Sequence record: OZ035771.1
Reading direction: 5' to 3' (one strand)
Source: Phapecoctavirus DIJ07P2
Length of the DNA stretch: 64,000 nt
The stretch's first letter is position 1. Each line of letters opens with the position of its first letter. The notes beneath the pieces were generated by a model. The model was not told the DNA's origin and made no database searches. It worked only from the letters and a program-made list of their open reading frames with translations. Position numbers and translations under genes: made by a program. Below, piece after piece: positions 2,325 through 49,582 of this stretch.

Positions 2325-2427
2325 TATTAATCCTTATTTTGTGAGTAGAACTATTATTCTACCTCTTCCAACCGAAAAAAGCTTTGAGGGAAATCAAAAA
2401 AGGCGCAAAGTGCGCCTTTAAGTTTTA

Positions 2428-3774
2428 TCATTTGGAGAGGAATTGTCTTCCCATGATCTTACCGTTCTTCACAGCAGTCCCATCGTGTCCATTGTAATCC
2501 CAGGTTCCATCGATATTACGCAAGAAGCTATCACGAACAGTATAGGCTTTACCGTTCTCTACTTTACTTTCTTCCACAATGATTGCCATAACAAGCTTAT
2601 TTTCAATTTCGGTAGTAACCGATTCTTTGATACCCTCTGTAACTTCACGATCATATTGGATATAAACTCGCTCCTCGGTTACTTGCACGTCTACCACATT
2701 TTTAAATGTGTAGGTCTGTTGCGTAGTGTAGAGGACACGAACGACACTCTTCTTACCTACTGGCGGCTTCTGACGACGCTTGCGGTAACGTGGAGACGGG
2801 TTAAGTTTAATATAACCTACAATATCTGATCCATCTCCAGAGTGGCTCCAATACAACGTCTCTGCCAACAAACCTTTTCCTTGGTCCCCATTTCGAAAAA
2901 GAACATTAACAGGACCATCACAAGGGCGTCTACCTCCGATGTGGGCTTGGTATTTTGCTGTTCTTGGGAGAACAAAATATTCTTCAATCTGCCATTCACT
3001 ATCGTATTTCTCCCATTCAAAGTGGTTGGCTTTACATACTTCTAAAACACCATTTTTGTAACGGACTTGAACAAAGTCTTCACAAGGTTGAATACCTGTA
3101 TTAGGAATATAGGTAGGCTCTGTGTCTTCTGGTTCAAAAGTCTCTTTTTGTTGTTCCACATCTTCCACTTTTCTTACATGCTTAGTATAAAACATATCTT
3201 TAAACTCCTGTGCTTCAACCTCAACTGCAAATTCATGTTCTCTGACAGCCGGAGGCACAAGGCTTCCACACTCAAGATGTAGAGCATCCAGACCTGCCAT
3301 TTTATCGTAAAAGATAACTTTTCGATACTTCTTACCGTCTTCTGGAATAGCAGGGTCTACTCGTTTAAGACGGGAAGCATCGCTTTTAGTCCAAAAACTC
3401 TTCCCTGTTGTATTATTGAAAGTAGTAATCATTTCTTCAATTTCTTCTTCAGAAAGGTTACTAGTGTCTGTGTAAACATCTTCAATTTTTAGCGTTTTAG
3501 TTTTCTTAAAAATTAAATCTAGCATTGCATCTCCTGTAAAACGTAGTTCATTATCTCCTACTGTCGGCTCTCCAGTAAATTCATCGGTCCCAACTGTGTG
3601 ACAGATGTATGGAAAATTTGTGCAACCGTGTAAAAGAGCATATTGTCCTGTAAGTTTAGGATCTGTCTCTTTAGTCCAACCATATGCAATCTCAATAGCT
3701 TTGCAAAGCCTATCAAACAAGCCACGATTGTTTGCCGCTGTTACCAAATCCTGTTTATGTGCATATACATTCAT
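2428..3774 (-). CDS. Hypothetical protein (448 aa)
   Basis: Long ORF in operon orientation with nrdD; no motif recognised by eye. Confidence 0.6.
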   Translation of the reverse strand: MNVYAHKQDLVTAANNRGLFDRLCKAIEIAYGWTKETDPKLTGQYALLHGCTNFPYICHTVGTDEFTGEPTVGDNELRFTGDAMLDLIFKKTKTLKIEDVYTDTSNLSEEEIEEMITTFNNTTGKSFWTKSDASRLKRVDPAIPEDGKKYRKVIFYDKMAGLDALHLECGSLVPPAVREHEFAVEVEAQEFKDMFYTKHVRKVEDVEQQKETFEPEDTEPTYIPNTGIQPCEDFVQVRYKNGVLEVCKANHFEWEKYDSEWQIEEYFVLPRTAKYQAHIGGRRPCDGPVNVLFRNGDQGKGLLAETLYWSHSGDGSDIVGYIKLNPSPRYRKRRQKPPVGKKSVVRVLYTTQQTYTFKNVVDVQVTEERVYIQYDREVTEGIKESVTTEIENKLVMAIIVEESKVENGKAYTVRDSFLRNIDGTWDYNGHDGTAVKNGKIMGRQFLSK

Positions 3775-4325
3775 AATAATCCTCCTCGTTTTATTGCAAT
3801 AGATGCCCTAGGCTCTGCGATACCAGTGGCGTATAAATATGGATGACCTTGTGGAGAAGTTCTCATCCCAAACGAACCTAATTCTAACCCATACATATCT
3901 TCCACGTCAAGACCAATATCTGTCTCTATGATTTGAGTTTGAACTTTGTAATACGTCCAAAAGAAATAGCGCATAGTTTCGGCATACTCTTTGATGGACG
4001 CTCCTGGATAAAACTCAATAATTTCCAACTTCAAGAAAATGTTAAAATGAACATCATCTAATTCTTCCTCTGTTCGGTAGCAAGGTGTTAGAGCCATATA
4101 AGGATGATCTGTTGAAAATTCAAAACCATCTTTCTCCATCTGGAGGAAAGACTGCTCTGCACTGGCTACGTAGAACTTACCATTAGGATGCCCCAAGGGG
4201 CGATCCTCTTTACCTTCTGGTAATGTATATGCAAGGATATCTGCATCTACAAGATAAGGGACTTCCAACATCTCCGCAAACCGTCCATAGTAATCAATAG
4301 CTTGAGCAATAACAGCTACGTTCAT
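3771..4325 (-). CDS. Hypothetical protein (184 aa)
   Basis: ORF with 4-nt overlap coupling to neighbours. Confidence 0.55.
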   Translation of the reverse strand: MNVAVIAQAIDYYGRFAEMLEVPYLVDADILAYTLPEGKEDRPLGHPNGKFYVASAEQSFLQMEKDGFEFSTDHPYMALTPCYRTEEELDDVHFNIFLKLEIIEFYPGASIKEYAETMRYFFWTYYKVQTQIIETDIGLDVEDMYGLELGSFGMRTSPQGHPYLYATGIAEPRASIAIKRGGLL

Positions 4326-4573: not shown

Positions 4574-7204
4574 TTAACGATCCTCTCTGATTTGATTAAT
4601 CTTACGAGCAAGGGCAGCTATAAGCTTATCTTCTTCAGATACAGGAGCCGTGCTCTTACCTAAACGATGCATGTCTAAAATCTCTTGAACAGTTCGGTTC
4701 CATTGCAGACATTTAATACAACGTGTATGTGCAACATACAGAAGATTTCGTTCTGATTCTTCAAGACCTACCCACTCACCCTTCTTATCGTAATTAGAAG
4801 GGAAGTCATTTGCAACAATAACCTGATCCCATTCCAAACCTTTTGATTTGTGGGCTGTAGTTAAAGTAACTTTAGCCGTTGGAGAGTTACGGTGCATACG
4901 TAAAGTGTATGCAATATTATTAGCTTTACCAGAAACAACAATGTTTAAAAGTCGTTTTGCATCAGGATCTGATTCTGCACACTCTACAAATTCTTCCCAA
5001 GAAGTGTAAGGTAGAACTGTCTCATGCTTAACTTTGTCCAAATCACCTCTACGTAAAGCATTAACACTATCAACCATAGAAATGAAATCTTTGGTATCTA
5101 CGTTAATAATAATCTCTTCTCCGTTAGCGATTCGATCCATTGCCTCCATAAGCAAGGTTAAATTCTTGCGAAAGATGATAGTGTAAGGTTTTGTATAGTC
5201 TACAACATCTGATTTGTAGCTACCTACTACAGTATCAAAGCCTTTACCAACCAAAGGATGACGCAAAGGTTCTTTATCGCTTAAAATCATATTGGCAATG
5301 TTTGCCACTTTGGGGCCAAAACGGAAGCAAGCAGTTAATGGAAGCTCTGCCCCATACTTAGCTGTTTCAATCATCATATTAGAGCTACCTCTAAATTGAT
5401 AAATGCAGTTGTGGCTAAGAATTTCATTGCCAAAGAAGTTAGCAGTATCCTCTACTTCAATATCATAATAGATACCCTCACTATCTACAATGTCCACAAT
5501 CTCTTCTGCCGTTACAGTATCACCATCTTTTACCAACACAGACATGCCTTTAAACAAACCCGCTGCCGGAATTAAGTTATATTTGGCAGTGTCTACAGAG
5601 GACATGCATTCTTTTAAAGATGCAAACGGAACTATTTCAAGGATCTTTTGTGCAAAACTCAATGCTTCACAATAAGAATTGAAATATTTACGTACACGGT
5701 AACGACCTTCCAATTTAGCAACACTTACGCTTACACCTGCTTTAATGAGTGAAGCATAGATCGGCATTTCACTTTCTGTCCACTCAAAACTGACTTGTGT
5801 TCCTTTACAACCTTGTGCTCGCAAAGTCACTGTTAACATTTTTCTTTCATCTACTGCACAATTGATGCTGTGCCAATGTGGATAAGCAAAATGATAGTCT
5901 TTATCCTCTAAAAGTTTAAAACCATTCTGTCCGAATTGTTCAAAGATGTTATTGATCCTTTCTTGATTAATGCCGCGTGAACTTGCTTCAAATACACAAG
6001 TAGGAATGCCATATTGTAAACTGTATGCCATTTCTTTTTCCATAGCAGCTTCGCGATTTTCAACAATGTCCAACACCCATAATTTCTGTGCTTTTTCAGA
6101 ACGTGTACGTTGCCCCAGTTTAGAAAAACCTTCTTTATCATCGAATTTGTTAGTGATCCCTACTCGGAAACCTAAATCTTTCCTCCACATTAGGTATACC
6201 ACCATCTGGTCATCTTTCAGAACATAAGATGAAGCCCAAATACGATGGTTATGTGTCATATCTAAAGTTTTACCTGTAGCAGTAATAATATTCCTACCTT
6301 TTGTACGTGTAGATAAAGTCTTATTTGTTACTTTTCTAAATGTAACTTTACCATTAGAATAAGACTCTACCTTATCACCGATTTGCAGGTCTTTCATTGT
6401 AACCTGACCATTCTCGGTGTTAAGTACCGTGTTTTCCGACACACATTGAAATTCATCACCCACAACAACAATACGTTTAGCCGATTTAGCATTACGAAGG
6501 ATAGACAGGAATGCAGGGTTAACATCCTGGAATTCATCTCCAAAAATAATATCGTATCCTAAATCTTCTTTGCTCAATTCAAAGAGTTTCACATAGGTGT
6601 CATGAGTCATAATGGTTTCTGATTTAGGATCAATACGCTCACGCCAAAGTTGCTTCGCATATTTAACAACTTCGTTAATAAGTTTTTGTTCGTTGATGTT
6701 TTTACGTTTTAGGTCTGACATGTGCACTTTAGGAAAATGTTTATGTCCGATATGTTCATCGTCAGAAAACTCATATTTAGCTAAAGTTTGTTTTACCATT
6801 AACCCGATCATTGCACGAGTCAGTAGCACTTTACCATTCTTATCGATCAAGTTCTGAATCTTAAATTTCTTGGCAATCTCACTACCAGTTCCAGCTACGT
6901 TAACATATTGACCTTCTGGACGAGATAATTTGTGTCGAAGGTTTTGTGGAAGACGCTGGTAACAGATAGAATGTAGCGTTCGGCACATAACATTGGGCGG
7001 CATTTTACGTCGAGCTTCCTCTGCCATACTTTTGTTAAATGCCAAATATAGAATACTATCATTTGTGCCATTAGCCAACATATACAGTGTTGACGTTTTA
7101 CCTGATCCAGATTTAGCTTGAATTGTAACGAAACGATTTTCTTTATACCCGCTTTCAATAGCGTATTGTTCATCAGTAGGTGTAAAACTCAATTGTGTAG
7201 ACAC
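4574..7204 (-). CDS. SF1 (UvrD/PcrA-like) DNA helicase containing an intein
   Basis: Walker A AKSGSGKTS, motif II IFGDEFQD, motif III VVVGDEFQ|CIYQFRGS split by insertion, C-terminal TAHKSKGLEW and VAHTRC motifs. Confidence 0.85.
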   Translation of the reverse strand: MSTQLSFTPTDEQYAIESGYKENRFVTIQAKSGSGKTSTLYMLANGTNDSILYLAFNKSMAEEARRKMPPNVMCRTLHSICYQRLPQNLRHKLSRPEGQYVNVAGTGSEIAKKFKIQNLIDKNGKVLLTRAMIGLMVKQTLAKYEFSDDEHIGHKHFPKVHMSDLKRKNINEQKLINEVVKYAKQLWRERIDPKSETIMTHDTYVKLFELSKEDLGYDIIFGDEFQDVNPAFLSILRNAKSAKRIVVVGDEFQCVSENTVLNTENGQVTMKDLQIGDKVESYSNGKVTFRKVTNKTLSTRTKGRNIITATGKTLDMTHNHRIWASSYVLKDDQMVVYLMWRKDLGFRVGITNKFDDKEGFSKLGQRTRSEKAQKLWVLDIVENREAAMEKEMAYSLQYGIPTCVFEASSRGINQERINNIFEQFGQNGFKLLEDKDYHFAYPHWHSINCAVDERKMLTVTLRAQGCKGTQVSFEWTESEMPIYASLIKAGVSVSVAKLEGRYRVRKYFNSYCEALSFAQKILEIVPFASLKECMSSVDTAKYNLIPAAGLFKGMSVLVKDGDTVTAEEIVDIVDSEGIYYDIEVEDTANFFGNEILSHNCIYQFRGSSNMMIETAKYGAELPLTACFRFGPKVANIANMILSDKEPLRHPLVGKGFDTVVGSYKSDVVDYTKPYTIIFRKNLTLLMEAMDRIANGEEIIINVDTKDFISMVDSVNALRRGDLDKVKHETVLPYTSWEEFVECAESDPDAKRLLNIVVSGKANNIAYTLRMHRNSPTAKVTLTTAHKSKGLEWDQVIVANDFPSNYDKKGEWVGLEESERNLLYVAHTRCIKCLQWNRTVQEILDMHRLGKSTAPVSEEDKLIAALARKINQIREDR
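5408..6445 (-). mobile_element. Intein (346 aa) within helicase motif III
   Basis: Starts CVSENTVLNTENGQVTMKDLQIGDKV (block A), has TLDMTHNHRIW (block B), ends YDIEVEDTANFFGNEILSHN followed by extein Cys; codon checks at 6443-6445 (Cys) and 5408-5410 (Asn). Confidence 0.8.
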
Positions 7205-12467: not shown

Positions 12468-12752
12468 ATGTACTATTCACAAGACGAAGCAGCAAACATT
12501 AAACTGGCAGTTGGCGATCTTATTGTGTCACCTAACTACCATTGGGATAACACAGATTTGGTTGAAGTAGTAACTCATGTTGGGTTTGAGGGCGTTGTGC
12601 TCTACACCCTGGGCGGAGGTGTTGTTGGGGAAATGGAACGTTATACAACAACGAAGAAACTGGTAAGCTCTTATCGCATGTTTTTACACCAAGGTTCGGA
12701 AGAGTATACAGCTTTCTTGTTGAAATTAGACGCAGATCGGGAGAAGGCATGA
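12468..12752 (+). CDS. Hypothetical protein (94 aa)
   Basis: ORF with GAGGAG RBS. Confidence 0.5.
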   Translation: MYYSQDEAANIKLAVGDLIVSPNYHWDNTDLVEVVTHVGFEGVVLYTLGGGVVGEMERYTTTKKLVSSYRMFLHQGSEEYTAFLLKLDADREKA

Positions 12753-13108
12753 TGAAAATTGTACACGATGAAATTCAAATAGAAGAAAGTGACCTGATGG
12801 ATTTGGATGCAGCTTTGGGGAAGGTAATCTATGCAGGAATTAAAGCCTTCCGTGAGAAGGCAAACAATAGCACGTTTGTCATGATCCCCACTAAACTGAT
12901 GCGTGTTTTGTATCCAAATAGAAGTGCGCCGTATACAGATGAAGAAGAGGAGACAGGTAGAAGGGAGTGGTTAAATATTTTAGAAAAGATGGAGAATGCT
13001 TTTATTGATAGCGGTAATCCAGAAATCGTGTATGCTGAAGATCAAAGGAAGGCACGATTAGAGGGCCGTCTTTTATTCGCTAGTTATTTTGATAATCTTT
13101 GGAGCTAA
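12749..13108 (+). CDS. Hypothetical protein (119 aa)
   Basis: ATGA-coupled ORF. Confidence 0.5.
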   Translation: MMKIVHDEIQIEESDLMDLDAALGKVIYAGIKAFREKANNSTFVMIPTKLMRVLYPNRSAPYTDEEEETGRREWLNILEKMENAFIDSGNPEIVYAEDQRKARLEGRLLFASYFDNLWS

Positions 13109-14504: not shown

Positions 14505-14861
14505 ATGAAAAAATTAATCTTAGCCACATTGCTGGCTACCGTAAGCTTCACCACTTACGCTCAAAAATTTGTAGCAGTTAAAACAGATATTGGTAAAGAT
14601 GTTGTGATCACAGGCAACAAGTTTTACTATACACCTGGGAATGGTGTTCTAGAAGAGTGCAAAGATGTTGAGGCATATACAGGAAAAGAAGATAACACGG
14701 AACGTCCTTTTTATTCGATTATAGCTACTTGCAAAAATGAAATAGTAGCTATTAAACAATACAAAGATGCACCTGGAGGAGAGTACTTATTAATCAAGAA
14801 TATTAAGAGTGAAAAAACTGCAAAGTTTACAGTAATTATTTTAAAAGGAGAAACGTTCTAA
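14505..14861 (+). CDS. Putative secreted protein (118 aa)
   Basis: Signal-peptide-like MKKLILATLLATVSFTTYAQ after AGGAGGG RBS. Confidence 0.55.
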   Translation: MKKLILATLLATVSFTTYAQKFVAVKTDIGKDVVITGNKFYYTPGNGVLEECKDVEAYTGKEDNTERPFYSIIATCKNEIVAIKQYKDAPGGEYLLIKNIKSEKTAKFTVIILKGETF

Positions 14862-16000
14862 TGAAATACACTATTTTTGGAGATGTGGCTGTTGTAAATA
14901 AGGAATATGGTGTTGAAGCTAATAAACTTCCTGCTGGAGTTTGGGTTGTCAACTGCGATCCGCACGGTAACTACTCTTTAGTGCGTGGCGAAAGTTTCTC
15001 TCTTCCGAACACTCTTTATGGGGAAACTAAAGACCGCGCCGCACATATTATTAAAACATTTGCTCGTCGTAGTAAAGAAGGTAAAAATACTGGGGTGTTA
15101 CTGACAGGGACAAAGGGCAGTGGTAAGACGATGTTAGCTAAACTGATTAGCATGTCCCTAATGTCCACAGAAGGTTTAGGTATTCCAACCATTTTGGTGA
15201 CACAGCCTTACACAGATGCTGGATTCTTAGAATTTATGAGTAAAATTACAGATCGTGCTGTTGTTTTATTTGACGAGTTTGATAAAGTGTACGCTAAGAA
15301 AGAAGATCAGGAAGCACTGTTGACCTTGTTGGATGGAACAGGAAGTGGAAATAAACTTTACATCCTCACTAAAAATAGTGGCTATATCTCGGAATATTTT
15401 GTAAACCGTCCTAGTCGTATCTACTACAGTTTCAATTACGATAAACTGTCTAGTGAAACTATGTTAGATTACTTGGATAAGAACTTGGTAAATAAAAAGC
15501 ACGTAGATAACTTCCAACGTTTATGGGATGTTAGCACAGAGTTGTCTTTCGATGTTATTCAAGGCATTGTAGAAGAATTGAATTTCTATCCAAAAATGAC
15601 TTTTAAAGAATGTCTGGAAATGATGGGTATTTCTTTAGGCAACGATGCTAAATGGAATGTGGCTTCTATCGTAGCTAATGGCAAAACACTGAAGGTGAAT
15701 TGGATCAATAACTGGCACGACTTCACCCCTACTAAGTTTTTGTCGGGTGCTTGTTCCCTGAACATCTATCTGCAAAGCTTGAAAGATGATGAAGTTGAAG
15801 CAATGGAAACCAACAGTTATGTTATCCTGGATGAAGATGGTGATCCACATATTGATCTATGTGCAACGGCGGATGGTCTAACTTGTGATCTGATTGAAGG
15901 TGGTAAGATTCTGGTTATGAGCACTACACCAGGAAACACTCTGCGAGTGGTGCTGGAGCCTGTAACACAACGTTCCACCACACTGGGTAGCGTGTTCTAA
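14861..16000 (+). CDS. AAA-family ATPase
   Basis: Walker A GTKGSGKT, Walker B VVLFDEFDK, sensor-like ILTKN. Confidence 0.7.
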   Translation: MKYTIFGDVAVVNKEYGVEANKLPAGVWVVNCDPHGNYSLVRGESFSLPNTLYGETKDRAAHIIKTFARRSKEGKNTGVLLTGTKGSGKTMLAKLISMSLMSTEGLGIPTILVTQPYTDAGFLEFMSKITDRAVVLFDEFDKVYAKKEDQEALLTLLDGTGSGNKLYILTKNSGYISEYFVNRPSRIYYSFNYDKLSSETMLDYLDKNLVNKKHVDNFQRLWDVSTELSFDVIQGIVEELNFYPKMTFKECLEMMGISLGNDAKWNVASIVANGKTLKVNWINNWHDFTPTKFLSGACSLNIYLQSLKDDEVEAMETNSYVILDEDGDPHIDLCATADGLTCDLIEGGKILVMSTTPGNTLRVVLEPVTQRSTTLGSVF

Positions 16001-16039: not shown

Positions 16040-16077
16040 ATATTGATTTCAGTTTAATAGGAAGAGAATTGTTAGAT

Positions 16078-17076
16078 ATGCCAGTAAAGAAGAGTATTGA
16101 AACATATATGGAAGAATGTAAGCCGATAGCTGAGGCTAAAGGGATTACCATTCTCGGCACGTATGGAGAAGATAAAGGTGTGCATACGAAGATGATCAAT
16201 AGTTGTGAGCATGGTCATGAATGGAATACTACAACGTTTCACAGTTTTAAAGATGGTCGAGGTTGTCCTAAGTGCGCCTACAGGGAACGTTCGAAAAAGA
16301 GAAGCAAAGCTATCACTATTCCAGACCAGCAACACATACAAGATTTTATGAAGGTAGGTAAATTTAAGGAAGGCACTATTTTCACCAATACAGGGGAACG
16401 TAAAGGGTGTGATATAGTATGGATGGTTGAATGTCCTGTTTGCTCTCATGATGAATATGTGGAAGCTGGGGTGTGTGATGGTAAATTCTATGCTACCGGA
16501 AGTCATCTTAAACGTGGGTGTCTCCCTTGCCGCTGTTCTACGAGTTACAAATACACAGAGGATCAGACCACCTATAGAACAAGAAAGGAAGTAGAAAGGA
16601 GAGGATATATATTGGTAGGATGGATCGGTAAACCTTCAACAATGGGTAAGTTTAAATATAGATGTAAGGAGCACGGGGAACAGATAGGGCGTGCAGATGG
16701 TTTGCTACATAAGGGGAGTGGGTGTCCGCAGTGCGGGGGCCAAAATCAACAACAATGTTACATTAATCATATTTATGATGAAGATGGTATTCTTTGTGCA
16801 CTGAAGTTTGGTATTGCCAATAGTAGTGATCGCCGTATCAAAGAACAGAATAGCCGCAATGTGTTTACTATGAGACAAGTTCAAGTGTGGCAGTTCCCCA
16901 CTGTGAAGCAGTGTAAAAATTCAGAAAAGTATTGCAAAAAGGTGTTAGACACAGAAGCAGTGAGCAAATATGCTATGCCAGACGGCTACACAGAAACAGT
17001 GGAGCTATCTTGTCTGGCATCAATACAAAACATTTATAAACTTTATGGTGGAATATTACAGGAGGAAACATGTTAG
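16078..17076 (+). CDS. Cys-rich protein with repeated G-x-G-C-P-x-C zinc-ribbon-like motifs; possible nuclease
   Basis: DGRGCPKCAY, KRGCLPCRC, GSGCPQCGG repeats; function not assignable by eye. Confidence 0.5.
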   Translation: MPVKKSIETYMEECKPIAEAKGITILGTYGEDKGVHTKMINSCEHGHEWNTTTFHSFKDGRGCPKCAYRERSKKRSKAITIPDQQHIQDFMKVGKFKEGTIFTNTGERKGCDIVWMVECPVCSHDEYVEAGVCDGKFYATGSHLKRGCLPCRCSTSYKYTEDQTTYRTRKEVERRGYILVGWIGKPSTMGKFKYRCKEHGEQIGRADGLLHKGSGCPQCGGQNQQQCYINHIYDEDGILCALKFGIANSSDRRIKEQNSRNVFTMRQVQVWQFPTVKQCKNSEKYCKKVLDTEAVSKYAMPDGYTETVELSCLASIQNIYKLYGGILQEETC

Positions 17077-39391: not shown

Positions 39392-39460
39392 GCTAGAACC
39401 CACCTAAATCAAACAGAGACGCTCTAAAATAGGAAAGGCACCCAAGTGGGTGCCTTTATT

Positions 39461-39733
39461 TTATTCTTCGTTAGATTGCGTTTCAGACGCGTTAAATTCG
39501 GTTTCAGTACAACTTGCTAGGTAACTTATGTTTTGCATCACTACAACTACAGGTGTTTTAAGTTTATCTTCTAGCCCAGCAGCCACTTGAGCCAAGGCAT
39601 TATCAATATTTGATTTCCTAACACCTGTTCCATGCCCTGTTGCCAAGTAAAGATTACCTTCCCCTTTTTGTGTAGCATTAGCAAAGTAGTAAACGTAATG
39701 TGCAAGGTAGTAATCACGGATTTCTTCAGTCAT
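39461..39733 (-). CDS. Hypothetical protein (90 aa)
   Basis: Last gene of the leftward block. Confidence 0.5.
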   Translation of the reverse strand: MTEEIRDYYLAHYVYYFANATQKGEGNLYLATGHGTGVRKSNIDNALAQVAAGLEDKLKTPVVVVMQNISYLASCTETEFNASETQSNEE

Positions 39734-39747
39734 TTTATTCTCCTAAT

Positions 39748-39767
39748 AAGAAAGGGGCCGAAGCCCC
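39748..39767 (-). terminator. Intrinsic terminator on minus strand (AGGGGC-TTCG-GCCCCT + T-tract)
   Basis: Lies between SIR2 stop and next RBS. Confidence 0.55.
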
Positions 39768-39776
39768 TTGAGTGGT

Positions 39777-40577
39777 TTATTTGTTTAAATGGTCTTCAAC
39801 CATTTTGATAAAGCCTTCATCACTGAAGACTGTTCCTGCTTTCTCTCGGTAGACAAGCACTCCACGTTCTTCGTAGAGAGTTTGTTCTACAAAATTCAAA
39901 CCTGGGTTAACTACAACCATCTTAACCCCAATATTCAGGGCAGGGAAGAGTTCCCAGTTGAAGTTGATTACTTGGTTAGAGCAGCCTACAACGATAACCA
40001 TATCTTGTGATGTTAGTTGATCCAGTTTGTGATACATGTCTGTGTAGAGCGGTGCATTCTCACCAAAAAACACCACATTAGGCTTCACATATTTGTAATC
40101 GTCTACATCAATAGCTGCGTAACCCACATCTTTGATAATTTTGTTATCAACAACAACTTCTGGCAAGAAACCATGAACGTGCAATATTTCTTCTCTATCG
40201 ATTCCAGCGCGTTCTAATAGATCGTCAACGTTAGTAGTGATGTTAATAATCCTTTCTGCACCGTATTTTTCGAACCATTCTCCAATCTGAAGATGTGCTG
40301 GATTCGGGTCAACTTTCTCTAATTCCACGCGACGTTTATTGTAGAAGTCGTGAGTTTTACGGTAGAGGTTATATCCTTCCACATCTAAGCCACCCATAGC
40401 ATCAGGAATACCCTGTTCTTGCTGATAACCGGCACGGAAGTTGAAAATGTCACAAACCTCAGAAAGATCATAAGAAGACCATAACGCCTCCCCTGAAGAA
40501 GTATCTGTTCTAAAAGCTGGGATACCGCTATCCACAGATAGTCCTGCGCCAGTTATGAATATGACTCTACGCGGCAT
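39777..40577 (-). CDS. SIR2-family (sirtuin-like) NAD-dependent protein, zinc-ribbon-less
   Basis: GAGLSVDSGIPAFR, TTNVDDLLERAG, LHVHG, VVFFGE, VVGCSNQV motifs; no CxxC pairs. Confidence 0.7.
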   Translation of the reverse strand: MPRRVIFITGAGLSVDSGIPAFRTDTSSGEALWSSYDLSEVCDIFNFRAGYQQEQGIPDAMGGLDVEGYNLYRKTHDFYNKRRVELEKVDPNPAHLQIGEWFEKYGAERIINITTNVDDLLERAGIDREEILHVHGFLPEVVVDNKIIKDVGYAAIDVDDYKYVKPNVVFFGENAPLYTDMYHKLDQLTSQDMVIVVGCSNQVINFNWELFPALNIGVKMVVVNPGLNFVEQTLYEERGVLVYREKAGTVFSDEGFIKMVEDHLNK

Positions 40578-41307
40578 AAATCTCCTCCTTATATTTTTCG
40601 CAAATGCTTTTATTTGCAGGTTTATATTTTTCTTTCATCACCTTCAATCTTAGCTTCTCCAGAGCTATAGCACATCTCTCTGGATCGTTGAAACCATATT
40701 TGCAATACGTGGTCTTGTCAAACACAAACTTGAAAAAGAATGTTCTCTCTCTTGTTGCCACAAACACACAACTTAATCCTGAAGTGTTATCTATACGCTT
40801 CTTTTCTTTTTTGATATAAGATCCTTTCAAAATTTCTTGTTTTGCTAAAGCTCTAGCTACAATAGCTTCCTCTTTAGTTTTGAAACCTGAAACAGAGAAA
40901 GTTTCTTGGTTGTAGTTTATAACCCAAAGAAAAACACCATCCTTTTCATAAATACCTTCTAACCCATCCACATGTCTATTATTATTATTTAATAAATAGT
41001 TACTATCTAATAAATTACTTTCCGCATTATTAAGTTTATTGCCGTCGTCATGGTCTATAACATCTGGACAGTAATTATGGTACATTTTAAAACAAACTCT
41101 GTGCTCCAAGTATACAATACCATCTATTTTGACATGAGAGTAACCAACTTTATCAATAGTCCCTGCAATCTTCCCTGCGTATCTGCTATTCCACCTTTTG
41201 TTCTCTTTTGTTGTAGAAGGTTTAGGTTTCCAAACAAGACGACCATTCTCCACACTAAACCTTGATAACAAGTAATCTCTATCTGGTAAGGGTTTTCGTT
41301 CTATCAT
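40567..41307 (-). CDS. Freestanding homing endonuclease (HNH with AP2-like DNA-binding domain)
   Basis: HRVCFKMYHN...IDHDDGNKLNN HNH-like motif and VSGFKTKEEAIVARALAKQE AP2-like segment; overlaps SIR2 start by 11 nt. Confidence 0.65.
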   Translation of the reverse strand: MIERKPLPDRDYLLSRFSVENGRLVWKPKPSTTKENKRWNSRYAGKIAGTIDKVGYSHVKIDGIVYLEHRVCFKMYHNYCPDVIDHDDGNKLNNAESNLLDSNYLLNNNNRHVDGLEGIYEKDGVFLWVINYNQETFSVSGFKTKEEAIVARALAKQEILKGSYIKKEKKRIDNTSGLSCVFVATRERTFFFKFVFDKTTYCKYGFNDPERCAIALEKLRLKVMKEKYKPANKSICEKYKEEIYAA

Positions 41308-41792
41308 TCACCCTCGTCCTCCTCAAATGGATCATAAGAATCATATTCGTAAGTATCATCTTCTGAAAATTCTACTTCAAAGTAAATATCAAACTCTGCA
41401 AACAAACGTAGAATGTTGGACATGCTGTAATAGTTATCATAAGCTTCCTCTGCTTCATAGTAGAGGCGTAGCAAACGTTCAGCTTCTTCATCTTCTACCC
41501 ATTTATGATCGACATAGACAGAAGCAGCGTAGGTATTGTAGGCTTGTTCCCGAATATCGACAAGATTTCGGCTCAACAGTTCAGGGAAGTCCTTATAATT
41601 TACATTCAGTCTTCCGCATAACCACAAAGCAATATCATGCCAATCTGCATCCATACCACTAAAGCAACTTGCTTCTTCTCCAAAAGAAGCTTCTCCTAAA
41701 TCACCACTAATACGAACAACATTAGATGAATTATAGCCACACGTTTCACAATCAGAGTAACTATTATGCACATTGATATTTACTTGAAACAT
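41304..41792 (-). CDS. Hypothetical acidic protein (162 aa)
   Basis: ATGA-coupled. Confidence 0.5.
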   Translation of the reverse strand: MFQVNINVHNSYSDCETCGYNSSNVVRISGDLGEASFGEEASCFSGMDADWHDIALWLCGRLNVNYKDFPELLSRNLVDIREQAYNTYAASVYVDHKWVEDEEAERLLRLYYEAEEAYDNYYSMSNILRLFAEFDIYFEVEFSEDDTYEYDSYDPFEEDEGE

Positions 41793-41803: not shown

Positions 41804-41835
41804 TAAAAGAAAAGCCCCCTGAAACAGGAGGCTTT
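41804..41835 (-). terminator. Putative minus-strand terminator hairpin
   Basis: AGCCTCCTG-TTTC-AGGGGGCT then TTTCTTTT on minus strand. Confidence 0.45.
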
Positions 41836-41850
41836 GTTCAGATGTTGGCA

Positions 41851-42501
41851 CTATACCAGACTTTGTAGGTATTTGTCAAGGGCTTCTTGATCACCTTGGC
41901 AAACATAGCAACGAAAGTCTTTAACAGATGGTACTTTATTCTCATCCCAGTCCCACATTATATTACCTTTGTAACGTGAACTAGGGAAGTCGAAAAATGC
42001 TGTATGGGTGATGTGGTGTGGACCGCCCCAAACCTCTGTAAAGGTGAACTGCGGATACGCTACCTTCACCGCCTCCATAAACCAAGCTTTACGAATCAAA
42101 GCATTGTTGATAAAATGCGCGTGACGTTCCATTTCTTCCCAGTTCTTCCACACACTTTTCTCGTCAAGGGAGAATACAAGATCCTCTTCAATATACAAGC
42201 CATCTTCGCATTCATCAAAATCTGCCTCAAGACCTCCTACAGGTTCGTCGAGTCTAACACCATCAAAAGCAGAATATACCCACCAACCATCTTCCAGTAA
42301 GGCTTTGATAGGGACGAAGCCTTTATCAGCATATTGATCGAATTGTTTGACACGGTGGCTTGTGCAGTCTTCAAACTCACATTCTAAACGATATGCACCT
42401 TTTCGACGAGCCTCAAGACCGTGTGTACTGAAAATAACAACACTTCCTTCACCATCATTACGATCTACTTGATAAGCAACCACTGGTTTTGAATTTGACA
42501 T
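41851..42501 (-). CDS. Hypothetical protein (216 aa)
   Basis: ORF in operon. Confidence 0.55.
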   Translation of the reverse strand: MSNSKPVVAYQVDRNDGEGSVVIFSTHGLEARRKGAYRLECEFEDCTSHRVKQFDQYADKGFVPIKALLEDGWWVYSAFDGVRLDEPVGGLEADFDECEDGLYIEEDLVFSLDEKSVWKNWEEMERHAHFINNALIRKAWFMEAVKVAYPQFTFTEVWGGPHHITHTAFFDFPSSRYKGNIMWDWDENKVPSVKDFRCYVCQGDQEALDKYLQSLV

Positions 42502-43576: not shown

Positions 43577-44248
43577 TCAATAACCTCCTTCGTAAGGTTT
43601 CACCTTAGCCCTATCATAATATAACATCTCTGCCTCCTTCCGTTTACGAATAGCTTCTTCTTTACTGTTACCATAGTATAAACTAATATGCTCTCCATTG
43701 ACTCGGATGTATGCAATCCATTTGCCCCTATCTTTTCTGTATTTTACCCCACAAATACCGGATAGATTATCTTTCCTTAGTTTTTGATCATAAGATTGCA
43801 TTGCGAGTGAAGCCCACTCACAGGTTTCTTTGCTATAAACATCAGCAGAATTAATTCTGTTTAAGGTTGTGTTTTGTGGTCTACTACCCATATCCTCAAC
43901 GAAATTCAAAAAACCTAAGTCCCCCTTCTCTAACCATCTACAGCATACAGAAACTCCACTACCTCCATACTTAGGATAATTCGGTGAGTTCTCATTGGTG
44001 CACCTGTCTATCATGGCATTGTAGGAATTATATGTATATCTATCCTCAATGAACTTGTAATGGTAACGCTCACAACCACAAGATTTAGTTTTACCAGATT
44101 TTAATCTTTCGGCTGTAGTAACAAACTTCTCACCGCAATGACAAATACAATTCCATTTTGTAGATCGTCCAGTCTCCTTAATTGCTACATCAAGAACTGT
44201 TATACCATTGAATACCATTCCAGACAGGTTTTCTAATTTCCTCCCCAT
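43577..44248 (-). CDS. Freestanding homing endonuclease-like protein with AP2-like domain
   Basis: Cys cluster CICHCGEKF...SCGCE and ICGVKYRKDRGKWIAYIRVNGEHISLYYGNSKEEAIRKRKE AP2-like segment; start moved to M27. Confidence 0.55.
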   Translation of the reverse strand: MGRKLENLSGMVFNGITVLDVAIKETGRSTKWNCICHCGEKFVTTAERLKSGKTKSCGCERYHYKFIEDRYTYNSYNAMIDRCTNENSPNYPKYGGSGVSVCCRWLEKGDLGFLNFVEDMGSRPQNTTLNRINSADVYSKETCEWASLAMQSYDQKLRKDNLSGICGVKYRKDRGKWIAYIRVNGEHISLYYGNSKEEAIRKRKEAEMLYYDRAKVKPYEGGY

Positions 44249-44249
44249 A

Positions 44250-45185
44250 CTATTCCTCAAAAGGTTTAAGTAAGTGTTTATTAGCGTGGAATCTTTTGAT
44301 GTAATCATCTTCTCCCATACTTTCATAAAGCTTCATCACGACATGGAAGGATTCATAGGCATATTCACGAAACCAACCACTAGTGATAGATGTGCAAACT
44401 TTAGATAAAGCCATCATAAAACTTTGCTTAGGTGTTGGACCTCCGATCTCTTCACCGAAAGGAATTTGTGAACGTTCCAAAGCCAAAACACACGCTTCTT
44501 CATAAACACCTAACAGGCGCACATGTTTTGGTTGAGCAAAAAACTTTTCTTTGCTGGTCATAACTTCACTTCCATCTTTCATATAAGATTTATATGCTGG
44601 AGCATCCATTACCGCGATTGCTTCATGGATAGAATCATGATCATAAACATACGGAACCTCATCACCTTTAAAGAAGTCTTTACTTTTTACGTTTAAGTTC
44701 GGATGAGAGTAAGTGTATGTTTCTTTCTCACGCAACTCATAAATACTCTTAAGATTTTCTGGGATCTTTGCGCCCAGTGACCGCATGAAATGAATATCTT
44801 TCATAGTTTTAAAGAAGTGAGGACTATCCTTTTTAAAACGATGACTCATTTTAAGAAGGTAGAGCACATCTAAAGGAGCAACAACATGTCCAGCGTAAGT
44901 TCGACGAACATCATCAGAATCTTCACAATAACTAATCAAAGCTTCTGTGCTATCTCCTTGAGAAGCAATATCGTATTCCAAATGTGCACCAGCTATCATT
45001 TTGACGTGGCCTTTGTTCCCTTTACGTTCTACAAGTTCAACAAACTCGTCTTGAGAGAACATTTTTGATAATTCTTCCCACTCTTGTTCTGTACAGAGAT
45101 AATCTAAATCTACACAAGGGCGATACAAGTCTTTTCCCATGTCCATAGCATGAATTTGTAATGCACGGCTACCAATTAACACCAT
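44250..45185 (-). CDS. Hypothetical protein with possible Pol-beta-type nucleotidyltransferase motif
   Basis: LIGSRALQIHAMDMGKDLYRPCVDLDY loosely resembles GS...D.D signature; speculative. Confidence 0.4.
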   Translation of the reverse strand: MVLIGSRALQIHAMDMGKDLYRPCVDLDYLCTEQEWEELSKMFSQDEFVELVERKGNKGHVKMIAGAHLEYDIASQGDSTEALISYCEDSDDVRRTYAGHVVAPLDVLYLLKMSHRFKKDSPHFFKTMKDIHFMRSLGAKIPENLKSIYELREKETYTYSHPNLNVKSKDFFKGDEVPYVYDHDSIHEAIAVMDAPAYKSYMKDGSEVMTSKEKFFAQPKHVRLLGVYEEACVLALERSQIPFGEEIGGPTPKQSFMMALSKVCTSITSGWFREYAYESFHVVMKLYESMGEDDYIKRFHANKHLLKPFEE

Positions 45186-46534: not shown

Positions 46535-47025
46535 AAAACCTCCTCAATTTTGTAGTTTGACTCCATCTCCAACACATTTCCACGAACGTCTCTCCGAAGA
46601 AAGGCATAAGCTTTATTAGGTATTGTAGACTCATATTTAACCATATCTGGCACAGCAAAAGATACTACTACTCCTGCTGGGCTTCTGTCAAGAGCCTTAT
46701 TAATATTTCTAAGGATATCGTTAGCCAAGATTTCTGCCAATTCTCCAAGAACAGTTTCTGTTATATCTTTATATCCCATTAAGTATTTGTTGATATCTTT
46801 CATCTCCGTATTGTTCAGAGTATAGTCCAAAGGATAGAAATTCAAAGCGGAGTCACTTTTATGTGTCCACATGAAATGCACCCGATCCGAGCAGAATCGT
46901 AACCCTCTTTGAAGAATATCTTCTACAACAGGCAGAATTTCTTTTGTCACATCATTAACCATGTTGTAATCTAAGATTTCTGCCAAGTTTGTTCTTTGTT
47001 CACCACGTTTACGTTTAGGAATCAC
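46513..47025 (-). CDS. Hypothetical protein (170 aa)
   Basis: ORF in operon. Confidence 0.5.
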   Translation of the reverse strand: MIPKRKRGEQRTNLAEILDYNMVNDVTKEILPVVEDILQRGLRFCSDRVHFMWTHKSDSALNFYPLDYTLNNTEMKDINKYLMGYKDITETVLGELAEILANDILRNINKALDRSPAGVVVSFAVPDMVKYESTIPNKAYAFLRRDVRGNVLEMESNYKIEEVLWQSSDQ

Positions 47026-47620
47026 TTGTTATTGCCCTCATTACCAAAGGTCGTAGAAAATCGTAAATCTCTTGTTTTGTTTTCCCACGAATGTTTAAAC
47101 AAGGAACATTATTGGCTTTAGCTATCTTCCAAGCCGTAGCTGTTCCACCTTTTGCATCTCCATGTTTATCAGTATTAGCACAAGCCAACAAGAAACATGA
47201 TGGAGCAGGATTCTCCAAATCTCTACCTAACACTTGATGCACATTACGTTGGTGCAATTTTCTAGCACCCTGCTTAAGCTTTTCATAGGCTGGGTGAACA
47301 TCTTTGATCCATTGCACAGAGATAGCATAGTTCATTGTATCTGGTTTTGCAAGAACAATAACATCCCCTGGAATCTGATTACCTTTGAAATTTTCCCAAG
47401 GAACATAAATCTCCTTGTTAGTAGGATTTTCAGACTCTTGGACACCTGTTTCAAAAGCAGAATCACTACCCTCTGCCTTCCCAGACCTTAATTTAAACCC
47501 AAGGTTTGAAAGCCATTTCCCTATGCCTACCATCAAAGCCCACTCTTCTTCGGATATGTCTCTACTTCCAACTCCCGTATAGAACAGTTCTGCCATAATC
47601 ACCTCAACAAGTAATTTCAA
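47015..47620 (-). CDS. DprA/Smf-like (SLOG Rossmann-fold) protein
   Basis: YTGVGSRDIS, LRSGKAEGSDSAF, HQRNVHQVLG, GGTATAWKIA segments resemble the DprA fold as recalled. Confidence 0.4.
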   Translation of the reverse strand: MKLLVEVIMAELFYTGVGSRDISEEEWALMVGIGKWLSNLGFKLRSGKAEGSDSAFETGVQESENPTNKEIYVPWENFKGNQIPGDVIVLAKPDTMNYAISVQWIKDVHPAYEKLKQGARKLHQRNVHQVLGRDLENPAPSCFLLACANTDKHGDAKGGTATAWKIAKANNVPCLNIRGKTKQEIYDFLRPLVMRAITSDS

Positions 47621-47912
47621 AAGGTGTATAGGGTTCCGTATTTCTCATGATCCAAGGACTGCTAGGATTGCTCGGATCATAAGGACCAAAAGGTTTTATG
47701 GTAGGTTGTGTTTCTTTCTTCTGAATCTCTTCAAAAATACGACGAAGTTCAGAATATTCTTGATCCACCATAAGATTCGGTGCATCTGATTCTACAGCTT
47801 GCAGATTATCTTCCTTAAAAAGAATCTCACGAACAAGATTAACATCTTCTGTTTCTAAGATAACTTCTTTACGGATATTGCCTACACTTTGAATAATTGT
47901 AATCTTATACAT
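47604..47912 (-). CDS. Hypothetical protein (102 aa)
   Basis: ORF in operon. Confidence 0.5.
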   Translation of the reverse strand: MYKITIIQSVGNIRKEVILETEDVNLVREILFKEDNLQAVESDAPNLMVDQEYSELRRIFEEIQKKETQPTIKPFGPYDPSNPSSPWIMRNTEPYTPFEITC

Positions 47913-48655
47913 TAATCCTCCTCAAGAGTTGAATAAAATTGAAGACCACCGTCCATATCGAAATAAGCAAATGTTAAGTTATTATTGAACACAGATCCAG
48001 TATCCATATAAACACGATTCGCATTGATAATAGGTGTTTTTACATAAGAGTGTCCATGAAACACATAGTCCACACCCATCACAACAGGAAGTTTCATTCC
48101 CTCTTTAGCACAGTCCACCATATCTCTGTCCCACATAAGTGCTTCAGCAAAACGGTTTTCCTGTGTTTTTGTCATCTTCAAAGTGTATTCTGGAATATCT
48201 GTTACAGGGAGATATTCCAAAGAAGATGGATACCCACCATGAATAAACGCAAGTTTCATGCCTCTGTAGTTAACAATGAGAACAACAGGTAAATCTTCTG
48301 TCATCATTGCTAAGGCTGTAGCTCCTTCTTCACCACATTCTTCAAGGACTGTATATCCTCCATTTTGATACCAACACTCGAAGTAGCTACGATCTCCTTC
48401 CAGCATAGCTTTAATCATCATGTCTTCATGATTTCCACGAATAGCATAGCGATTGTGTTTACGAGTAAATTCTAAAACACAACGAAAGTTTTGCTTTCCA
48501 CGGTCAGTAAGATCTCCTAAAGATACAACTACATCTGTATCTCGGATACCTAACTTTGCCTTTCCTTTTTCATACAAATTATAACAACCGTGCAGATCTC
48601 CAATTATAAAAAGATCTTGATCGCTTTTAACAGTAATTTCTCTATGTATGATCAC
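47912..48655 (-). CDS. Ser/Thr protein phosphatase (metallophosphoesterase)
   Basis: GDLHG, GDLTDRG, GNHE calcineurin-like motifs. Confidence 0.8.
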   Translation of the reverse strand: MIIHREITVKSDQDLFIIGDLHGCYNLYEKGKAKLGIRDTDVVVSLGDLTDRGKQNFRCVLEFTRKHNRYAIRGNHEDMMIKAMLEGDRSYFECWYQNGGYTVLEECGEEGATALAMMTEDLPVVLIVNYRGMKLAFIHGGYPSSLEYLPVTDIPEYTLKMTKTQENRFAEALMWDRDMVDCAKEGMKLPVVMGVDYVFHGHSYVKTPIINANRVYMDTGSVFNNNLTFAYFDMDGGLQFYSTLEED

Positions 48656-48991: not shown

Positions 48992-49582
48992 TCAAATTAT
49001 TAACGAAACCGCATGACTAAATTTTGGTTCAGATATAACCTCTGCTACAGTCACATATGTATCGTGCAGCCAAAAAGATTCTACTCTACAAACACAAATA
49101 CCGTTGATAATGAAATCTACACAGGCTTTATTATTTTCGCACACTTGTTGTCTATAAACAACCCCTAAAGAGTCATAAAGTGATCTCACTGTTGCTACCA
49201 TTTCATCTGTTTCATCTTCGTGCGAAACAAAGAAAACGAATACAGACAAGTTGTTAGCGAAAGTACTGCTATTCTCTACTTCAACCGACTTACAAGGTAA
49301 AAAGGAGTAATATTTACCGTTAGGTATCAATTTCGCCTCAACCTGGTTAAGTATGCTTTGAGATGGTTTTGTTACATAAAAAAGATTTTCTGTTGGGTTT
49401 TCAACATTACTCCTTACTATGCAACGAGTGGGGTTCGAAGGATCAAAAACATGATCGAAATCGACACACACAGGTAAGTTAACAACTTTAAACTTTTTGC
49501 TAAGAATGCTTACTGCGGTAAAAATCAAACCAGCGTTTATTTTGCCAGTGAAAGTTGAACGCATAACTACTCCTCGGATCAT
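48992..49582 (-). CDS. Hypothetical protein (196 aa)
   Basis: ORF in operon. Confidence 0.5.
   Translation of the reverse strand: MIRGVVMRSTFTGKINAGLIFTAVSILSKKFKVVNLPVCVDFDHVFDPSNPTRCIVRSNVENPTENLFYVTKPSQSILNQVEAKLIPNGKYYSFLPCKSVEVENSSTFANNLSVFVFFVSHEDETDEMVATVRSLYDSLGVVYRQQVCENNKACVDFIINGICVCRVESFWLHDTYVTVAEVISEPKFSHAVSLII

Follow-up and report, generated by a model that had tools for sequence, protein, structure and literature searches.

Two questions are raised by the sir2 locus of Phapecoctavirus DIJ07P2: which reaction is carried out by a phage sirtuin that has no zinc ribbon, and how an endonuclease gene came to overlap the start of its gene. The locus lies in a window of 64,000 nucleotides (nt) of sequence record OZ035771.1 (the window being the whole stretch of DNA that was analysed), belonging to a phAPEC8-like coliphage, a myovirus (Stephanstirmvirinae). 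Across a 3-kb region it shares 95.7% identity with Escherichia phage nepoznato, and matches to this region occur in 78 phage records. The explanation that best accounts for both genes together, to which about an even chance (0.5) is given, is that the sirtuin may act on RNA and that its neighbour is a free-standing HNH homing endonuclease with which part of sir2 has been co-converted. Neither element is of a new kind: the sirtuin falls in a phage clade that is already published, and its neighbour among the free-standing HNH homing endonucleases. The new points are modest ones: the zinc ribbon is decayed and not simply absent, its loss is coupled with a Gln to Thr (Q-to-T) change, the anion-binding motif of class III sirtuins is retained, and an inter-genus homing event can be recognised with two co-conversion end-points.

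Sequence and predicted structure of the phage sirtuin

The sir2 product, a protein of 266 amino acids (aa), matches Pfam SIR2 (PF02146) with 73.8 bits (E 2.2e-20; cutoff 24 bits) and PHROG 2162 'Sir2' over its full length (residues 2-266, E 2e-96). It possesses the sirtuin motifs GAGLS (residues 10-14), F22-R23, TTNVDD (114-119), HVHG (133-136), KPNVVFFGE (165-173), GCS (198-200) and VNP (223-225), while its only cysteines are C42 and C199, with no CxxC present. A preliminary description of this DNA had reported a 266-aa protein with sirtuin motifs and no CxxC, and it is borne out here: both open reading frames (ORFs) of the locus are real, the motifs are present and there are just two cysteines. 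In an alignment of 28 diverse sirtuins of the phage clade, residues G10, A11, G12, S14, F22, R23, N116, D118, H135, G136, K165-P166-N167, E173, G198, S200 and N224 are invariant, and these line up with the matching motifs of Sir2-Af2 and CobB. As judged from this alignment, the complete set of sirtuin NAD-binding and catalytic residues is conserved across the clade. The preliminary description had held its assignment to depend on conservation of the catalytic His and the NAD-binding residues and, since these are invariant in all 28 sequences, it stands in this respect. Some clade members carry a 30-residue insert in the helical subdomain.

The phage proteins depart from the canonical pattern at two places. 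T115 takes the place of the Gln of TQN(I/V)D in all 28 members of the clade, and none of them has zinc-ribbon cysteines (CxxC...CxxC, between HG and KPNV) in the segment corresponding to residues 137-164. The zinc module has been reported to be necessary for deacetylation by canonical sirtuins and helps to shape the peptide cleft (PMC12700824). The class III Y-x-x-R motif is retained (Y79 and R82), and it is this Y/R pair that binds the carboxylate of succinyl-lysine in SIRT5, Sir2-Af1 (Sir2Af1) and CobB (PMC4253809). An AlphaFold2 model built on the alignment gave a predicted local distance difference test score (pLDDT) of 87.3 and a predicted template modelling score (pTM) of 0.85. A beta-hairpin (strands 136-143 and 147-150) is predicted at the position of the zinc ribbon, and the sole disordered stretch of the model, residues 23-32, is taken to be the cofactor-binding loop of the sirtuin.

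Origin of the zinc-less state

When 1.84 billion representative proteins were searched with a profile, six clusters (50% identity) formed a tight clade at 253-441 bits, followed by a sharp break and then by a continuum starting at 200 bits. In this next tier, zinc-less proteins with 'TTNVDD' are intermixed with proteins possessing a CxxC...CxxC ribbon and 'TQN(I/V)DD'. Both types, as well as the phage protein, carry an internal '(D)IGY ... KPNV' signature (zinc-type 'ELTKMKCLDCDHYWDIGYKAWDIEKDTCPNCGKAEHVKPGV' versus 'FLPEVVVDNKIIKDVGYAAIDVDDYKYVKPNV'); in the nearest relatives, the segment homologous to residues 137-164 is a zinc module of the 'ELTKMKCLDCDHYWDIGYKAWDIEKDTCPNCGKAEHVKPGV' type. 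As zinc-bearing and zinc-less relatives have this signature in common, the predicted hairpin is best described as a decayed zinc ribbon and not as a simple absence. Counted over the relatives, Thr was found with no Cys in 24 proteins and with a zinc ribbon in 4, and Gln with a zinc ribbon in 54 and with no Cys in 6, these counts being phylogenetically non-independent; Thr at the Gln position accompanies the loss of the cysteines, as a correlation only. The nearest non-phage relatives are almost all metagenomic proteins according to a cluster look-up. One zinc-less relative is encoded on a T4-like phage contig with the gene order RlaP-SIR2-NADAR, and one zinc-bearing relative is cellular, with a Mollicutes-like context, its gene adjoining that of a lipoate-protein ligase.

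Relationship to classical deacylases and defence sirtuins

The preliminary description had placed the protein closer to the SIR2 modules of bacterial defence systems than to classical deacetylases. Searches of PDB sequences with the sirtuin recovered Sir2-Af2 (3.5e-15), CobB and SIRT5, and Foldseek ranked E. coli CobB first with the model (template modelling score 0.86, normalised on the target), the best 50 matches being classical deacylases throughout. In a structural comparison, the listed values were 21.4 for Sir2-Af1, 19.0 for PfSir2A, 18.1 for SIRT4, 17.5 for SIRT2, 17.3 for Hst2, 17.2 for SIRT1, 14.5-14.6 for SirTM and 14.5 for SIRT6, with the defence proteins PsSIR2 (12.9), HerA-Sir2 (11.7), ThsA (11.2) and Avs5-SIR2 (10.0) lower, followed by FAM118B (9.3). 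No PADLOC defence model matched the sirtuin at E<=0.1, and Pfam SIR2_2 gave 14.5 bits against a cutoff of 24.5. The classification by hidden Markov models (HMMs) of SIR2 subfamilies that had been suggested as a check therefore gives PF02146 above its cutoff and SIR2_2 below. With deacylases at the top of the structure list, no PADLOC match and SIR2_2 far below threshold, the resemblance to defence modules that had been put forward is wrong, and assignment to the defence-type SIR2 proteins was rejected.

Identity with CobB was likewise considered and rejected. The NCBIfam models for CobB and related deacylases gave at best 95.6 bits against a cutoff of 243, and 84.1 against 320, and because every one of these models scores far below its cutoff the sirtuin is not a CobB orthologue. 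It belongs to a compact phage-borne clade of the canonical lineage which is closest to class III (CobB, Sir2-Af1, SIRT5).

Members of this family were identified in 970 of 50,697 phage records, among T5-like, rV5-like, phi92/phAPEC8-like and KVP40-like phages and some jumbo phages, and a homologue search yielded 952 homologues. Their usual database label is 'Sir2 (NAD-dependent deacetylase)', or deacetylase/deacylase. Phage sirtuins were described as a distinct clade by Iyer, Burroughs, Anantharaman and Aravind in 2022 (Viruses 14:1977; PMC9503650), with Escherichia phage (r)V5, Proteus phage Mydo, Escherichia phage SP15 and Serratia phage BF as prototypes; the main text of that paper makes no mention of zinc-module loss, the Q-to-T change or a homing endonuclease. 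Among the 'auxiliary' enzymes of large virulent phages of enterobacteria that still lack an explanation, the protein is one of the most widespread, and its carriers include many candidates for therapy (T5, rV5, phi92 and phAPEC8 groups).

A putative homing endonuclease gene inserted at the start of sir2

The gene overlapping sir2 encodes a protein of 246 aa that matches PHROG 99 'HNH endonuclease' (E 3e-34) and has an intact DHxDGNxxNNxxxNL motif (VIDHDDGNKLNNAESNL). Its GC content is 34%, compared with 41% for sir2. The overlap of the two genes amounts to 11 nt (ATGCCGCGTAG), as previously described, and the HNH assignment of the preliminary description is backed by the PHROG 99 match, with Pfam HNH_3 just short of its cutoff. 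The AP2 component is not confirmed: no match to Pfam AP2 (PF00847) was found at E<=10, isolated segments included. The window encodes a second endonuclease, whose AP2-like part the protein resembles weakly (E 0.009; 49 aa aligned at 39% identity), and a PDB sequence search with the 246-aa protein returned nothing meaningful. The gene for this second protein, at 43577..44326 (-), is free-standing and lies 2.3 kb upstream of the first; its 249-aa product matches PHROG 374 'HNH endonuclease' (1.5e-62) and, weakly, Pfam AP2 (E 0.005). The corresponding site is occupied in phage nepoznato by another HNH gene, far shorter at 333 nt, and is therefore polymorphic as well.

When aligned with the endonuclease-free phages ZCKP1 and phAPEC8, the endonuclease gene proves to be inserted exactly between the stop codon of a PHROG 9509 gene and the ATG of sir2, two genes that directly abut or overlap in phages lacking the endonuclease. 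The TAG stop codon of the endonuclease gene falls within codons 3-4 of sir2. With an ATGA overlap upstream and an AAGGAGG encoded within the endonuclease gene six nt before the sir2 ATG, the expression signals of sir2 are preserved. By tblastn, the endonuclease (at least 98.7% aa identity) was identified in 8 of the 50,697 phage records, which represent six phages and in which it is always located beside sir2: KKP_3264, BME3, muut and KKE7M of Justusliebigvirus, and nepoznato and ECML-183-2 of Phapecoctavirus. Beyond these, identity falls to 37% or less, the next relatives being free-standing HNH genes elsewhere, such as those annotated 'F-TflVI' in T5-like phages. Most genomes of both genera lack the endonuclease (for example ZCKP1, phAPEC8, phi92 and PD114), and the insertion is exact, which answers the comparison with relatives that the preliminary description had proposed.

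In sliding windows, the endonuclease gene is 97-100% identical between this phage and the Justusliebigvirus phages, against 40-70% for the flanking backbone. The identity extends into sir2, codons 1-36 being 100% identical to those of KKP_3264 and differing from endonuclease-free ZCKP1 at 39 of 108 nt (17 synonymous and 10 non-synonymous codon differences, including CGT/AGA and TCT/AGT swaps). Over codons 96-266, the difference from ZCKP1 is 3 of 513 nt. The crossover in this phage lies 108-290 nt into sir2, while the foreign tract in nepoznato is approximately 540 nt; upstream, the co-converted tract is shorter than 40 nt. PD114, the closest Justusliebigvirus with an empty site, differs from endonuclease-positive muut nowhere but in the final ~20 nt of the gene upstream and in ~27 nt at the start of sir2. 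The endonuclease gene of ECML-183-2 is frameshifted by a 2-nt deletion, reflecting either decay or a sequencing error.

It is well supported by these comparisons that the 246-aa protein is a putative free-standing HNH homing endonuclease whose gene has moved between two genera together with the first part of sir2. The earlier suggestion that the locus is a homing target is strengthened accordingly, the same site having been used in two genera with sir2 tracts of differing length. The endonuclease would cut genomes that lack its gene, either at the junction or close to it, or else within the initial ~100 nt of sir2, and repair from a co-infecting endonuclease-positive genome would copy the endonuclease gene and a variable length of sir2. 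Its target probably lies between about -20 and +100, counted from the sir2 start codon. The locus provides a clean natural case of inter-genus homing with mapped co-conversion end-points, which explains the local mosaicism of sir2, and homing should be considered in phylogenetic work that relies on sir2 or the genes around it as markers.

A further mosaic pattern was noticed among phages without the endonuclease. ZCKP1, a Phapecoctavirus, carries a sir2 allele of the muut/PD114 type at codons ~37-100, and phi92, which is congeneric with muut, differs strongly over the whole gene. Genus boundaries are not respected by sir2 alleles, possibly as a footprint of earlier homing followed by loss of the endonuclease.

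Possible function of the sirtuin

The family is labelled as a protein deacetylase everywhere, without evidence. As the classical lineage and the catalytic residues are kept, the module reported to be needed for peptide deacetylation is lost and a contact to the NAD ribose is changed, the question of function becomes a sharper one, between a deacylase and an RNA 2'-phosphotransferase. In line with the interpretation that Iyer et al. (2022) gave for this clade, it is tentatively proposed, at somewhat less than an even chance, that the phage sirtuin would transfer the ADP-ribose of NAD+ to a phosphate of RNA (the 2'-PO4 of a ligated junction). NAD+ would be used to ADP-ribosylate an anionic group of the RNA, the likeliest being the 2'-phosphate at a repaired tRNA/RNA junction, and the chemistry would be that of the two-step Tpt1/KptA reaction on a sirtuin scaffold. 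The phosphate would be held in the Y-x-x-R pocket, and loss of the zinc module would reflect the giving up of peptide substrates. The two-step chemistry of Tpt1 corresponds step for step to the mechanism of sirtuin deacylation. For Tpt1 itself, the two steps are described in two papers (PMC6333775, PMC6097658). Extended to the group, and held more loosely, the proposal is that zinc-less Thr-for-Gln phage sirtuins may be nucleic-acid enzymes, a convergent sirtuin-fold analogue of Tpt1/KptA removing 2'-phosphates (or related marks) from tRNA or other RNA with NAD+, with the decay of the ribbon as the structural mark of a change of substrate from peptide to RNA. If this is true, RNA would for the first time be the substrate of a sirtuin, and a tRNA repair pathway of the yeast/plant type (kinase, cyclic phosphodiesterase, ligase, 2'-phosphotransferase) would be completed in T5-, rV5- and phi92-like phages.

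For this clade, removal of RNA 2'-phosphates in a KptA-like manner during RNA repair was predicted from gene neighbourhoods (PMC9503650, section 3.7.3). In the rV5-like Raoultella phage Ro1, SIR2 belongs to a run of directly adjoining genes (Rnl1-type RNA ligase, cREC, AAA_33 kinase, SIR2, ligase), and less than 1 kb separates SIR2 from a HAD_SAK_2 phosphatase gene in the T5-like phages gmork and KEY. In the window, the immediate neighbours of sir2 are PHROG 9509, PHROG 8514, a Dcm-like methyltransferase gene and PHROG 15991, and no tRNA genes were found. The closest complete genome, that of nepoznato, encodes a phosphoesterase, an RNA ligase, an ATPase resembling polynucleotide kinase (PNK), a CheY/cREC-like protein, an ATP-dependent ligase and a MazG-like protein at 14.3-19.9 kb. 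In the same orientation and co-directional block as sir2, this cassette is situated ~27 kb further upstream, at a position just past the end of the window; nepoznato has 9 tRNA genes and no annotated KptA/Tpt1. With no repair genes among the local neighbours and the nepoznato cassette ~27 kb away, the association with RNA repair exists here at the level of the genome and not locally.

Other genes with a possible bearing on ADP-ribose or RNA were also observed. Upstream of sir2, 7-8 kb away, a DprA/SLOG-like protein (PHROG 768) is encoded at 47015..47620 (-). In one operon with it, at 47912..48655 (-), is the gene of a calcineurin-like phosphoesterase (Metallophos, 3e-13) with a partial match to a PHROG of RNA-ligase-fused phosphoesterases. 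In the literature, the processing of ADP-ribose derivatives or of RNA ends has been discussed for both domain types. In distant sirtuin-encoding phages, genes for PRPP synthetase and NADAR-domain proteins occur within a few kb (Ro1 (L010), 1..209 and 12608..12777; L018, 7732..8181), which hints at an NAD/ADP-ribose neighbourhood broader than RNA repair alone.

Weighing of alternative explanations

Several observations count against the joint explanation. The close structural matches are all protein lysine deacylases, the conserved His and the Y-x-x-R motif would suit a desuccinylase equally well, and the Q-to-T change and zinc loss are correlates. A search of the literature on phage sirtuins, and on sirtuins as RNA 2'-phosphotransferases, found no experimental study, the 2022 computational prediction standing alone. 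No RNA-repair gene is next to sir2 in the window, where the nearest is that of the calcineurin-like phosphoesterase, 7 kb off. No gene for an RNA ligase, kinase, cREC or MazG was detected among the 26 neighbouring or large window ORFs that were scanned, and the cassette of the closest genome is outside the window. On the side of homing, the match of the 246-aa protein to Pfam HNH_3 remains below the cutoff (22.2-24.1 bits against 24.8; profile positions 3-36 of 46). PD114 is endonuclease-free and already has the endonuclease-linked sir2 allele from about codon 10, so the target cannot be placed precisely. Part of this evidence is what one would expect of an ordinary class III NAD+-dependent lysine deacylase, which like CobB or SIRT5 would reset the acylation of host or phage proteins and in which the hairpin would structurally replace the zinc ribbon. 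Regarded as somewhat unlikely, this alternative draws on the best matches in sequence and fold (CobB, Sir2-Af1/Af2, SIRT5), on the full catalytic set including His135 and the invariant F22, on Y79-x-x-R82 as a known determinant for succinyl- and malonyl-lysine (PMC4253809), on the database annotations and on the position of sir2 away from RNA-repair genes in this phage. Yet the zinc module is reported to be required (PMC12700824) and its cysteines are gone throughout the clade, which makes a plain deacetylase less likely; the invariant Q-to-T change sits in the NAD-ribose motif, the scores are far under the NCBIfam CobB/deacylase cutoffs (95.6 against 243 bits), and elsewhere the gene is found repeatedly within cassettes for RNA repair or ADP-ribose processing.

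Two further functions were considered. A mono-ADP-ribosyltransferase of the SirTM kind, modifying a host protein, is very improbable given that no macrodomain partner is adjacent, that the structure is nearer to deacylases than to SirTM and that the catalytic His is strictly kept. The reading of the preliminary description, an NAD+ glycohydrolase of defence or counter-defence type, or else a sponge or hydrolase for NAD-derived immune signals, is the least probable of all; the protein does lack a zinc module, as do SIR2_2/defence sirtuins, and the virus that carries it must face NAD-depleting defences, but profile and structure comparisons place it with the deacylases, as set out above. As regards the 246-aa gene, it is improbable that it is a domesticated or decaying HNH gene, no longer an active homing endonuclease, which was spread by ordinary homologous recombination of a mosaic region. 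Such a history would fit the HNH_3 score just under the Pfam cutoff, the mosaic sir2 alleles of these genera even in endonuclease-free ZCKP1 and PD114, and the frameshifted copy of ECML-183-2. Against it stand the intact DHxDGNxxNNxxxNL motif, the 97-100% identity across genera on backbones of 40-70% with an identical insertion point and variable flank tracts starting at the gene, the relationship to free-standing HNH genes of other phages (the annotated T5-like F-TflVI), and the presence of several other selfish endonucleases and a probable intein in the window.

Organisation of the locus and other features of the window

The sir2 and endonuclease genes are located towards the 3' end of a long run of co-directional genes, some for nucleotide metabolism and others of unknown function, which contains ThyX, NrdAB, PhoH, the Dcm-like methyltransferase and the calcineurin-like phosphoesterase and is closed by a bidirectional terminator-like hairpin at 39434..39457. 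The features of the locus are listed in Table 1.

Table 1. Features of the sir2 locus of phage DIJ07P2, with positions given in the window
Feature	Position	Strand	Description
PHROG 15991 gene	39461..39733	(-)	Downstream gene, 90 aa; final gene of minus-strand block; ORF listing and PHROG
Terminator-like hairpin	39752..39769	(-)	Directly after sir2 stop codon; consensus scan only
sir2	39777..40577	(-)	266 aa; phage-clade sirtuin, canonical PF02146 lineage, class III-like; ORF listing
Degenerate zinc-ribbon segment	40086..40169	(-)	Residues 137-164, FLPEVVVDNKIIKDVGYAAIDVDDYKYV; no Cys; predicted beta-hairpin
HVHG, catalytic His135	40170..40181	(-)	Residues 133-136; H135 and G136 invariant; aligned to HG of Sir2-Af2 and CobB
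TTNVDD	40221..40238	(-)	Residues 114-119; N116 and D118 kept; T115 in place of canonical Gln, TQN(I/V)D; aligned to CobB 'TQNIDN'
Y79-N-K-R82	40332..40343	(-)	Class III 'Y-x-x-R' anion-binding motif; aligns with CobB FYNARR; Y79 and R82 invariant
Minimal co-conversion tract	40470..40577	(-)	sir2 codons 1-36; endonuclease-linked Justusliebigvirus-type allele
GAGLS NAD-binding motif	40536..40550	(-)	Residues 10-14; F22-R23 next, 40509..40514; invariant residues
HNH homing endonuclease gene (putative), free-standing	40567..41307	(-)	246 aa, 34% GC; PHROG 99, ORF listing
AAGGAGG Shine-Dalgarno for sir2	40584..40590	(-)	Inside 3' end of endonuclease gene; 6-nt spacer to ATG; read from sequence
HNH motif region	41011..41106	(-)	Residues 68-99, ...VIDHDDGNKLNNAESNL; Pfam HNH_3 match
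PHROG 9509 gene	41304..41792	(-)	Upstream gene, 162 aa; TGA overlaps endonuclease ATG (ATGA)
Terminator-like hairpin	41811..41835	(-)	Upstream of PHROG 9509 gene; consensus scan only
Promoter-like site	41879..41850	(-)	Precedes 41811..41835 hairpin; 11/12 matches; consensus scan only

A number of other features were noted in the window. The UvrD-type helicase encoded at 4574..7204 (-) has 876 aa compared with 531 aa in nepoznato, and a match to Intein_splicing at residues 261-599 (30.6 bits; cutoff 35.8) with a Hint module at 253-326 suggests that it is probably interrupted by an intein. NrdD is encoded in pieces at 834..3774 (-), of which 2428..3774 matches PHROG 15930 'ribonucleotide reductase' and 1443..2324 matches Pfam NRDD positions 1-263 of 562. 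Next to these pieces, at 834..1343, is an HNH/NUMOD endonuclease gene. As nepoznato has the same layout and a further NrdD fragment after the endonuclease, the NrdD gene looks to have been split by a homing endonuclease.

Two paralogues of 184 and 196 aa, encoded at 3771..4325 (-) and 48992..49582 (-), match PHROG 4806 'histidyl tRNA synthetase' and have no Pfam match; this label is probably a propagated mis-annotation. At 16069..17076 (+), a 335-aa protein with two CapR-homology domains (PF21817, 4e-25) and a match to PHROG 681 'endonuclease' is encoded, its gene adjoining that of a 379-aa ATPase (14861..16000).

Comparison with known systems

With the phage sirtuin clade of Iyer et al. (2022), the protein shares the full-length match to PHROG 2162, 48-59% identity to rV5- and T5-like members including that of SP15, an equal size and the same invariant residues. 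It differs in gene position, sir2 not being adjacent here to genes for RNA ligase, cREC, kinase or HAD phosphatase. CobB, Sir2-Af1 and SIRT5 have the GAGxS, FR, N/D, HG, VxFGE and Y-x-x-R motifs in common with it and are its best sequence and structure matches, whereas the phage sirtuin is without the zinc-binding cysteines, has Thr for Gln in TQNxD and scores below the NCBIfam CobB cutoffs. The defence SIR2 proteins (ThsA, DSR1/2, SIR2-HerA, SPARSA and Avs5; SIR2_2) belong to the same sirtuin superfamily and likewise have no functional zinc ribbon; they are of another subfamily by HMM and by fold, and the phage sirtuin has no partner or sensor domains, its zinc-less state being that of a decayed canonical ribbon.

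Tpt1/KptA would be matched in the proposed NAD+-dependent, two-step removal of an RNA 2'-phosphate, and is resembled in the genomic company kept by sir2 in related phages (RNA ligase, kinase, cyclic phosphodiesterase-like cREC, HAD and NADAR). Tpt1/KptA has the ART (ADP-ribosyltransferase) superfamily fold and the sirtuin a Rossmann-type one, and since these folds are unrelated the phage sirtuin is no member of the Tpt1/KptA family. Phage free-standing HNH homing endonucleases, among which are the T4-type Mob endonucleases, share with the 246-aa protein the HNH motif, intergenic insertion between conserved genes, presence in a minority of genomes, co-conversion of flanks and decay of some copies. 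It differs from them in being at most 37% identical to any relative outside the six phages that carry it and in the weak indication of an AP2-type DNA-binding domain.

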